Assembly: GCA_976551045.1 (NCBI GenBank)
Contig: CDPCPM010000231.1
Coordinates: forward strand, 930,001 to 994,000
DNA length: 64,000 nt
Direction: 5' to 3'
Source: Glaucostegus cemiculus
Taxonomy: Eukaryota
Below, in pieces: positions 17,360 through 60,406 of the stretch. Made by a program: the position numbers and the translations under genes. The notes under the pieces were generated by a model, which was not told the DNA's origin, did no database searches, and worked only from the letters and a program-made list of their open reading frames with translations. Within the stretch, counting starts at the first letter, position 1, and each line of letters starts with the position of its first letter.

Positions 17360-17581
17360 CCATCCTCCTAAATACTGAATGTAACTTTGAAGCCTTGTGG
17401 TTATGTACCGTACAGTGGTTCTAAAGAGGCGTGGGAGCAATCGAGGCTGCTCCATTACAGTCTTTTCTAACAGCAGAAGTGTCAGTAACAGAACACCTTT
17501 CTCCCGTGGCATATCTTGAACAACAGTAGTCCTTTGATTGGTCAAGCCATTAATTATGGCAGACAAAGTTGCAGTTCCATC
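17360..17581 (-). CDS. BID: BID core-helix exon ending in GGW
   Basis: Acceptor taatcag|GAT, 74 codons. DMPREKGVLLLTLLLLEKTVMEQPRLLPRLFRTTVRYI resembles human [38 protein letters not shown]. Donor TGG|gtaagt. Confidence 0.93.
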
Positions 17582-20586: not shown

Positions 20587-20720
20587 TTCTTGGGGCCGAA
20601 TTCTTTCATTTGCACGGATAAATCCTTCAACCACATCACGATTAATGCCTCGATCCAACCCATCTCCCATCTGAGCTAAGCGTACACCTATGTCTCTGTA
20701 CAATTCTTCAACAAATGGAG
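20587..20720 (-). CDS. BID: BID BH3-containing exon
   Basis: (A)PFVEELYRDIGVRLAQMGDGLDRGINRDVVEGFIRANERIRPQE. BH3 LAQMGDGLD resembles human LAQVGDSMD. Phase-0 donor GAA|gtaagc. The acceptor is atypical (GAG; see findings). Confidence 0.92.
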
Positions 20721-24143: not shown

Positions 24144-24357
24144 CTTCAAGTTCTACGGCTGAACGAGAAAAAGATAAAGACGAGCAGTGTCCATCTGTCT
24201 GAATATCATCATCAAATGCTAATTCTTCTCTGACTTCTTTTTCAAGTTTACATATTTCTTCCCCAAGGATGCGATTTTCAAACTTCTTTGCTTTAAGAAA
24301 TATCAACAAAATGTACTGCGTCTGTTTTTCGAACAACAGATCAGCCTCCAGGGACAT
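24144..24357 (-). CDS. BID: BID first coding exon (exon starts at acceptor 24377; ATG at 24357): N-terminal helices and caspase-8 loop
   Basis: Acceptor ttgcag|gag. Reads MSLEADLLFEKQTQYILLIFLKAK...DDDIQTDGHCSS...AVELE; IQTD|G corresponds to human LQTD|G. Phase-1 donor AAG|gtacta at 24144. Confidence 0.93.
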
Positions 24358-24490
24358 GTCCAAAGTGTCCCTTCCTCCTGCAATTTAAACAAACAGAAAA
24401 TGGGTAGGTTTTTAGAAGTGAGTGAGAGGCAACTGGAAGCAACACGTCCATGCTTGAGGCAGGGTATTTTGGAGAAAACACTAACGCAAA

Positions 24491-55126: not shown

Positions 55127-55577
55127 ATGGGTCCATCCGATGCAGTGGAGAGTAATTCCATGTCAGAGAACAACTCTGCAGATGACAACAGCTTTGAGTT
55201 TAGGATATTGATGGCCTATGCCGAAAGGACTTTGTTGATGGATGAAAGGTCAAAAAATAAATTATCCTCATCCAAGATGGGCAAAAGGAAAGCAAACCAG
55301 TCTTCAGGTGCAAGGGGTAATGTGGATCCATCACATGATGGTAGCCTGGATGAACATCCAAAGGTTGAACTAAAGGGATCCACTGTAATCCATTCCGATG
55401 AGAACAAGAAAAATTCTGTTCGCAAAAGCAGAAGGAAACCCAAATGGAAAAGACTGATTCCAAGATGTCTACGAGCAGCAGCATCAAGTCATGAGGCCGA
55501 AGAATATGGAAAGAGTGAAGAGGTTGAGACAGCATTAAAATCTCCGTGTAACATTGGTTTTCCTGAACCAGAACGTG
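55127..55577 (+). CDS. BCL2L14: BCL2L14 (BCL-G)-like first coding exon
   Basis: Acceptor tttctaaag|gtaaaacATGG. DDNSFEFRILMAYAERTL resembles human DDLNTIEFKILAYYTRHH; basic RRKPKWK resembles KKKSSWK. Phase-1 donor G|gtaggt. Confidence 0.88.
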
Positions 55578-57479: not shown

Positions 57480-57587
57480 TTTCAGAACTGGACCCTCATG
57501 AGGTTGCTGAAATGCTGCAAAATGTTATGAACTCAGCAGTTTCATTTAAGATGTTGCGTACTCCTAGTTTGGAAGTGGATGCACCAG
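57480..57587 (+). CDS. BCL2L14: BCL2L14-like second coding exon
   Basis: Acceptor ttctag|TT (an in-frame alternative lies 6 nt downstream). (V)SELDPHEVAEMLQNVMNS...SLEVDAP resembles human VDPKVISIANRVAEIV. Phase-1 donor CAG|gtaagt. Confidence 0.85.
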
Positions 57588-57672: not shown

Positions 57673-57749
57673 CTACAGATGATGATCAGAAAACCATAGA
57701 CCGAATTGTTGAGTTCTTAACTGCCAGAGGAGATTCTATTGAGGAAAAA
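57673..57749 (+). CDS. BCL2L14: BCL2L14-like BH3 exon
   Basis: Acceptor ttttag|CT. DDDQKTIDRIVEFLTARGDSIEEK resembles human EEEQILAKIVELLKYSGDQLERK. Phase-0 donor AAA|gtaatt. Confidence 0.92.
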
Positions 57750-57849: not shown

Positions 57850-58131
57850 ATTAAGAAGGACCCACAATTTGCTAAACTGTTTGGTGAAGAGGCATCCTTT
57901 TCATTTTTCAAAAGAGTGATGGATTTTGCCCTTCAAGCAACCTTACCTGTAGAAATGAATTCAGAAGCAGAGTGTGAAGCAGGAGTAAAGTTGAACAAAT
58001 TTGCTTTGGTTGTACATGCAACTACTAAGTTTGCTGTTGCTGGCAACCACCCAATGGCTCGAATCATGGGCTTTGGAACAAAGTACTTACAGGAAAACTT
58101 CACTACCTGGGTCATGGAAAAAGGAGGATGG
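57850..58131 (+). CDS. BCL2L14: BCL2L14-like core/BH2 exon
   Basis: IKKDPQF..SFSFFKRVMD..KFALVVHATTKFAVAGNHPMARIMGFGTKYLQENFTTWVMEKGGW resembles human ...NHPMNRVLGFGTKYLKENFSPWIQQHGGW. Donor TGG|gtaagt. Confidence 0.95.
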
Positions 58132-60373: not shown

Positions 60374-60406
60374 GAGAAGATAATGGATGAGGAGTACGTT
60401 GACTGA
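60374..60406 (+). CDS. BCL2L14: BCL2L14-like terminal coding exon (EKIMDEEYVD*)
   Basis: Acceptor ttctttgtccag|GAG in phase 0. Matches the human tail EKILGISHEEVD*. Joined CDS is 951 nt (316 aa). Confidence 0.88.
   Translation, partial: EKIMDEEYVD

Follow-up and report, generated by a model that had tools for sequence, protein, structure and literature searches.

A predicted caspase-8-type site ahead of the BH3 region of ray BCL-G, conserved in many vertebrates and absent from the sampled mammals

Does a five-residue motif, LEVD|A, in a BCL-G-like protein encoded next to BID mark a protease switch of the kind known from BID, and what would such a switch release? The question is raised by a 64,000-nt stretch of the Glaucostegus cemiculus genome, referred to here as the window. 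An initial annotation of the window had proposed that cleavage after this motif would remove a long basic N-terminus and free a tBID-like fragment. In this work, we give about an even chance (a probability of roughly 0.5) to a modified reading, in which a cut after D184 by a caspase-8-type protease would unlatch a BAK-selective BH3, the motif having been lost in mammals.

The motif is encoded on the plus strand; residues 181-184 read LEVD, and the D184 codon (57578-57580) stands two codons and one base ahead of a phase-1 donor, with the BH3 in the following exon. Five coding exons with GT-AG boundaries give a predicted protein of 316 aa, of which 132 aa lie C-terminal of D184; this translation confirmed the annotated site, D184 and a C-terminal piece that holds both BH3 and BH2. 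Alternative donors and acceptors lead to products of 313-315 aa or to an early stop, and the model chosen agrees with the Pristis pectinata ortholog across the junction. Five exons are likewise reported for the porcine BCL-G open reading frame (PMC10244440). The supposedly long basic N-terminus was not borne out: residues 1-184 have a net charge of -1 and are basic only in a patch at about 93-117, and the 185-316 fragment has a net charge of -7. Since the exon carrying the site is 108 nt long and of phase 1-1, it could be skipped in frame; a paddlefish isoform (X2, P0030) seemingly lacks the segment and would be uncleavable.

The gene is the ortholog of BCL2L14 (BCL-G), so that the annotated BCL-G-like identity holds, both by named matches and by tree position. 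Exon 4 matches proteins named BCL2-like 14 in rays, sharks and a chimaera, with 91% identity to the named Pristis pectinata BCL2L14. The protein carries L-x-x-x-G-D at 202-207 and GGW at 304-306 and has no NWGR, which corresponds to BH3 and BH2 without BH1, the combination by which BCL-G is defined (PMC10244440). A quick tree of 164 rows, used only for sorting clades and with 7 short fragments of 171 left out, separated BCL-G (127 rows), BCL2L12 (10) and BNIP5/C6orf222-like proteins (27) into three clades, and placed the Pristis ortholog P0001 inside the first (SH-aLRT 97). PF15661 matched three of the four scanned members of the BNIP5/C6orf222-like clade, two of them above the cut-off. The sole other genomic match is a BCL2L12-like gene on contig C226, where the corresponding exon end lacks E-x-D. 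The BID family profile PF06393 matched neither the Pristis ortholog nor exon 4 at E up to 0.1, and in a search of the genome it returned the BID exon alone.

BID itself, recognized by its PF06393 match, lies upstream on the minus strand, head to head with BCL-G and about 30 kb from it; the apparent acceptor of its BH3 exon (20720) has a terminal GAG, seldom used as a 3' splice site. About 48 kb downstream of BCL-G begins an LRP6-like gene, whose best full-length alignment is LRP6; human BCL2L14 has LRP6 and ETV6 as neighbours. SAM_PNT, used as a check for an ETV6 neighbourhood, matched 12 times in the genome and nowhere on C231, the contig on which the window occupies 930001-994000. Across window positions 8261-60406 and C231:1038551-1142435, the order is BCL2L13-like (+), BID (-), BCL-G (+) and LRP6-like (+), where the first gene is taken by us to be BCL2L13-like from its sequence features. 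This order may represent an ancestral cluster; human BID and BCL-G are located on different chromosomes. Elsewhere in the genome, C245:526600-529300 and 553100-556430 hold a tandem pair of small genes with BH3 and BH2, in which the BH3s are canonical, NWGR is absent and the exon layout is BID/BFK-like.

Table 1. Positions in the window of the BID and BCL-G features discussed in the text.
Feature	Position	Strand	Basis
BID open frame to phase-1 donor, IQTD|G from 24204; exon 5' end not fixed	24144..24384	-	
BID BH3 exon, canonical BH3 with Met at the hydrophobic third position	20587..20720	-	
BID BH2-side exon	17369..17575	-	PF06393 above cut-off
BCL-G coding exon 1 (aa 1-150), phase-1 donor; predicted helix 1 and basic patch	55127..55577	+	Pristis ortholog match
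BCL-G conserved N-terminal helix (aa 23-34), predicted helix-1 slot	55193..55228	+	Pristis-ortholog model pLDDT about 90; fold alignments from model residue 20-23; vertebrate conservation
BCL-G coding exon 2, 108 nt, phase 1-1: extra helix (Pristis P0001 aa 157-171), then site loop	57480..57587	+	model
RTPS, R-x-x-S element at P8-P5 of the BCL-G site	57557..57568	+	
LEVD|A, predicted caspase-8-type site of BCL-G	57569..57583	+	translation, conservation
BCL-G coding exon 3, 77 nt, atypical BH3	57673..57749	+	
BCL-G BH3, I198-I209: L202, R205 (third hydrophobic slot), G206, D207	57705..57740	+	
BCL-G coding exon 4, 282 nt: core helices and BH2 (58108-58131), without NWGR-type BH1	57850..58131	+	
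BCL-G last coding exon, ends EEYVD-stop; orthologs' ends similar	60374..60406	+	

A match of five residues may mean little on its own. The pattern [LIV]E.D[GSA] occurs four times in the 127,996 six-frame residues of the window, so that a single 5-mer could be due to chance; moreover, the loop is acidic, and a loose core motif appears in a quarter to a third of its shuffles. On these grounds, the motif might be a chance match kept by descent or as a helix cap. To this stands opposed its conservation, for which we defined a strict motif as [LIVF]-E-x-D-[GSA] within 40 residues before the BH3, with expectations from 300 shuffles per segment. It is present in 17 of 20 chondrichthyan proteins, with 0.30 expected, which disfavours a chance origin; in one group of teleosts (teleost A) it is found in 23 of 31 (0.91 expected; 3 unscored). 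In squamates, 27-40 residues separate the motif from the BH3 Leu, a distance too great for a helix cap. Furthermore, among E-x-D triplets of the same proteins, an aliphatic or Phe P4 together with a small P1', neither of which was selected on, accompanies 57 of 90 in the loop and 0 of 49 elsewhere upstream, a test whose printed p-value overstates the case because the sequences are related and the events not independent. By the shuffle counts and the E-x-D test, the chance reading appears largely refuted, and we consider it extremely unlikely.

Among the other chondrichthyan proteins, the P3 Glu and the P1 Asp, whose conservation the initial annotation had proposed to check, are invariant (19/19), and the Asp is also found in most teleost-A proteins. 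P4 is Leu or Val in these chondrichthyans, and the flanks of the site loop have an average column identity of 52-60%. P1' is Gly, Ala or Ser in 16 of them, Val in two catshark proteins and Arg in Pristis, the closest named relative; these last three count against our preferred reading.

Beyond cartilaginous fishes, the strict motif was recorded in 9 of 11 lungfish and amphibian proteins (0.17 expected; 3 of 14 rows unscored), all four scored proteins of squamates and alligator (0.11 expected; 2 of 6 unscored), one of three birds (0.05 expected) and three of four members of a basal ray-finned group (0.11 expected; 1 unscored). Named carriers include lungfish (LETDG), newt (VEADG) and caecilian (VEPDG); frogs have LETDG, LEHDG, LEVDG, LETDS and VEADG, sauropsids LEEDG (gecko, python, alligator), VEADG (tegu) and LEQDG (brushturkey), and teleosts IEVDG, LETDG, IEADG, LETDS and IETDG. 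P5 is Ser in sharks and tetrapods and mostly Asp or Glu in teleosts. Ray-finned BCL-G forms two clades, with the motif kept in the first (teleost A) and mostly gone from the second (teleost B, 7 of 27; 0.64 expected; 4 unscored), suggesting that the two clades diverged after a duplication. The profile search yielded 215 proteins, of which 150 were listed and 30 named by look-up, and the group labels of rows without names, including all teleost-B rows, rest on the tree.

The mammals are the exception. None of 122 scored mammalian proteins has the strict motif (1.13 expected; 6 unscored, namely five fragments or odd isoforms and one that was motif-free in another count), and none was found further upstream in 21,508 residues of mammalian BCL-G. 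This set consists mostly of the best 120 of 172 matches to a bat query and comprises named placentals, others without names and one echidna, with no marsupial. A mammalian KKD|G was considered as a surviving site and rejected, as reptiles have both the junction Asp and the upstream motif, and the mammalian P4-P2 residues are small or basic. Proteins of a swift, a woodpecker cluster and the echidna (P0036, P0178 and P0043) keep only degraded traces (SEEDD, LQEDK and CAGDS), which suggests that the motif disappeared independently in mammals and in some birds. With its loss from most teleost-B proteins and from two of three birds, the motif seems dispensable in several lineages. The nearest paralogs, BNIP5/C6orf222 and BCL2L12, have a similarly atypical BH3 and carry the motif in 1 of 25 (2 unscored) and 0 of 10 proteins, respectively. 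At a matching spacing, 15-18 residues before the BH3 Leu, IETD|G occurs in a BNIP5-like protein of sturgeon, IEAD|C in a relative and AESD|S in a homolog from hagfish (P0102, P0095 and P0109), a hint that the site may be older than the split of BID, BFK, BCL-G, BNIP5 and BCL2L12.

A conserved motif could serve as a phosphorylation or docking element instead of a protease site. In the ray, an R-x-x-S element directly precedes LEVD, and R-x-x-S-hydrophobic-E is a CaMKII/PKA/14-3-3-like consensus. S179 and S181 (P0001 numbering) are present in 18 of 19 chondrichthyan proteins, with R or H at P8, and R-x-x-S appears again in amphibians and reptiles. However, teleosts without the upstream R-x-x-S still have [LIV]-E-x-D-[GS], so that P4, P3, P1 and P1' hold where the kinase element does not, and a small P1' and an invariant Asp are foreign to those kinase consensus motifs. 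We therefore regard this function as improbable for the motif itself, while phosphorylation could tune cleavage at D184. A tankyrase-binding motif, with the consensus R-x-x-P-D-G, was also rejected: the Arg has the wrong spacing, the Gly is often Ala, and teleosts have no Arg.

Across the strict matches, P2 varies widely and the spacing to the BH3 Leu ranges from 12 to 40 residues, which indicates that retention of the motif does not depend on one fixed structural register. Fixed P4, P3, P1 and P1' positions with free P2 and spacing are the pattern expected of caspase subsite selection. The annotated caspase-8/granzyme-B-type consensus is supported by precedent, as LEVD is the caspase-8 site D376 of c-FLIP (PMC3281420), and LEVD, LETD, VETD and VEVD are all tabulated as known caspase sites (PMC11738786). 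Taking all cleavage readings together, LEVD|A is, as judged from sequence conservation, very probably a genuine cleavage site. Because the motif occurs in the majority of the sharks, fish, amphibians and reptiles sampled and in none of the sampled mammals, BCL-G was likely once protease-switched like BID.

The surroundings of the site were examined in an AlphaFold2 model of the Pristis ortholog P0001 (not of the window protein itself), built with 130 sequences (pLDDT 72.6, pTM 0.64); an earlier 19-sequence model, with a pLDDT of 43, was not used. In this model, helices 24-48 and 157-171 are predicted with confidence, the motif-bearing loop (172-186) has a pLDDT of 52-60, and the BH3 helix begins at 187. 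The best structural matches have the Bcl-2 fold and align with the model from residue 20-23 through to its C-terminus (20-315), with BCL-XL (Z 10.8), BAK (Z 10.5) and BFK (7ccl; Z 9.9, rmsd 4.0, 127 aligned residues) tied; for a protein built entirely of helices, a Z near 10 is moderate, and the helix packing is deduced from the ranges of these fold alignments. BID was not among the 50 VIA-align matches listed for the Pristis model, and Foldseek gave no match for the two BCL-G models at E up to 0.001. As the Bcl-2 fold alignments start at residue 20-23, helix 1 of the fold is likely supplied by the N-terminal helix, and the site likely lies at the far end of the long loop, just ahead of the BH3 helix. 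The cut sites of BFK and BID are also located in the loop before the BH3 helix (PMC8814693).

The comparison with BID has to be qualified. Both proteins have a site with an aliphatic P4, Asp at P1 and a small P1', encoded by the phase-1 exon that precedes the BH3 exon and located, by prediction in BCL-G, in a loop after helix 1, and in this respect the annotated correspondence stands. The spacing does not correspond: IQTD|G of BID is followed by the donor after 16 codons and by the BH3 Leu after 31 residues, in contrast to 18 residues in BCL-G. Unlike BCL-G, BID also has a canonical BH3, a short N-terminus and a PF06393 match. BFK (BCL2L15) shares with BCL-G the BH3+BH2 composition and a caspase site, predicted in the case of BCL-G, in the loop before the BH3 helix; its site is an effector-type DEVD with a demonstrated cut, whereas P4 of BCL-G is aliphatic or Phe (PMC8814693). 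The annotation's description of BCL-G as a possible second protease-activated member has to be dropped, since BFK is already known to be activated by caspase-3/7 at DEVD41 (PMC8814693). The pseudo-BH4 of BID and BFK, ECIxNxLxxxFL (PMC8814693), is not matched by helix 1 of BCL-G, which reads FEFRILMAYAER. Thus, ray BCL-G misses two sequence tests of BID and BFK, the pseudo-BH4 and the consensus BH3, but is likely triggered in the same way.

It is over the activity of the fragment that the annotated inference becomes weaker. The third hydrophobic position of the BH3 is hydrophobic in none of 20 chondrichthyan BCL-G proteins, which have K, E, R, Q or S there, and is non-hydrophobic in all 18 scored lungfish, amphibian and sauropsid proteins. 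The mouse Bcl-G BH3, with Ser at this position, neither bound Bcl-xL nor killed when placed in BimS (PMC3481120), and the BFK BH3 peptide binds Bcl-2 and Bcl-XL with nanomolar affinity (PMC8814693). According to a preprint, the BH3s of BNIP5 and BCL-G are Bak-selective, and both proteins inhibit Bak-dependent death; when placed in tBID, the Bcl-G BH3 binds Bak and opens it, leaves Mcl-1 and Bcl-xL alone, and gives protection to cells deficient in Bax (10.1101/2022.07.24.499430). This chimera is the nearest experimental stand-in, by analogy, for the 185-316 fragment.

Read as a full killer, the annotated tBID-like fragment would activate BAX and BAK and neutralise pro-survival proteins, or would permeabilise mitochondria through its central helix. 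The predicted topology is that of BID and BFK; tBID can kill independently of its BH3 through helix 6 (PMC8762556), and the central helix of shark BCL-G is hydrophobic and flanked by lysines. Such killing is nevertheless doubtful, as the BH3 lacks the third hydrophobic residue in every one of the proteins counted above and the mammalian BCL-G BH3 binds BAK and not MCL-1 or BCL-XL, its chimeras giving no killing (PMC3481120) or even protection (10.1101/2022.07.24.499430). In addition, the negative charge of the 185-316 fragment would be a poor fit to cardiolipin targeting. We regard a tBID-like output as quite improbable.

In the mechanism that we prefer, caspase-8 or -10 would cut after D184, with caspase-6/9, an inflammatory caspase or a granzyme-B-like enzyme as possible alternatives. 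The 1-184 part would detach, as p7 of BID does, releasing the BH3-bearing core from its latch of N-terminal helices. By analogy with the mammalian BCL-G BH3, the 185-316 fragment would expose a BH3 that engages BAK without neutralising MCL-1 or BCL-XL. The trigger would be tBID-like and the output would not: killing would be limited to settings with weak BAK buffering, and elsewhere the fragment would drive BAK into MCL-1 complexes.

The same conservation of the motif could also reflect a cut that switches BCL-G off by splitting regions jointly needed for a non-apoptotic (TRAPP/secretion) or BAK-restraining role. Loop cleavage disables BCL-2, BCL-XL and MCL-1, which counts in favour of this possibility. 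Mouse Bcl-G binds Trappc6b through both aa 103-136 and aa 273-328, on either side of the loop (PMC3481120), and full-length human BCL-G protects from Bak-dependent death (10.1101/2022.07.24.499430). An inactivating cut, however, could be anywhere in the loop, whereas in nearly all lineages the site is held in the last stretch of a loop of about 150 aa near the BH3, and no strict motif was found further upstream in sharks and tetrapods. Inactivation is thus rather unlikely in our view. Release of a BAK-selective BH3 has its own difficulties. Human BCL-G, which has no such site, inhibits Bak when induced by CRISPRa (10.1101/2022.07.24.499430), so exposure of the BH3 may not need cleavage. Even BAK binding may not carry over, since sharks have K, E or R at the third BH3 slot, where mammals have S.

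Apart from the missing motif, mammalian BCL-G resembles the ray protein in its BH3 and BH2 without BH1, five coding exons, non-consensus BH3 and acidic EEVD-like C-terminus, and both belong to a single clade of the tree; an LRP6 neighbour may be a further shared feature. The acidic end is conserved as EEVD in 95 of 120 mammalian proteins, as EEVE-like sequences in reptiles and as EYVD or EHID in sharks; EEVD-like ends resemble the TPR-binding tail of Hsp70/Hsp90. A cut at D184 would give BCL-G another C-terminus ending in EVD.

A search of the open-access literature brought up no description of a caspase site in BCL-G, nor of such a site being lost in mammals. In the available text of a 2023 BCL-G review, the string "cleav" occurs in a single passage, on BFK and BID (PMC10244440), the available portions of PMC3481120 and 10.1101/2022.07.24.499430 hold no passage on cleavage, and BCL-G is not mentioned in PMC8998228. 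The same review describes cross-species conservation of the role of BCL-G as open and names BFK/BID-style cleavage as a direction (PMC10244440). A comparable pattern is known for gasdermin A, which has a caspase-1 site in non-mammals and is an orphan death protein in mammals; it belongs to an unrelated family, and its cleavage was demonstrated experimentally (PMC10948149).

The kind of switch is already known from BFK and BID, and BCL-G is a candidate further member of it, with an output that is uncertain and probably not that of tBID. These results suggest that BID and BCL-G, neighbours in the genome, share an ancestral mode of activation. A wider proposal, which we put forward tentatively and with the odds somewhat against it, is that BCL-G was an ancestral caspase-8 substrate and a third cleavage-switched BID-like protein, relaying death-receptor or cytotoxic signals to BAK since the origin of jawed vertebrates, and that its loss of the site in mammals left it an orphan through two decades of work on mouse and human. 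BCL-G has long been an orphan of the BCL-2 family; if the proposed switch is real, a site missing from mammals would explain why mammalian studies found no trigger, and a caspase-to-BAK link would be added in fish and amphibians.
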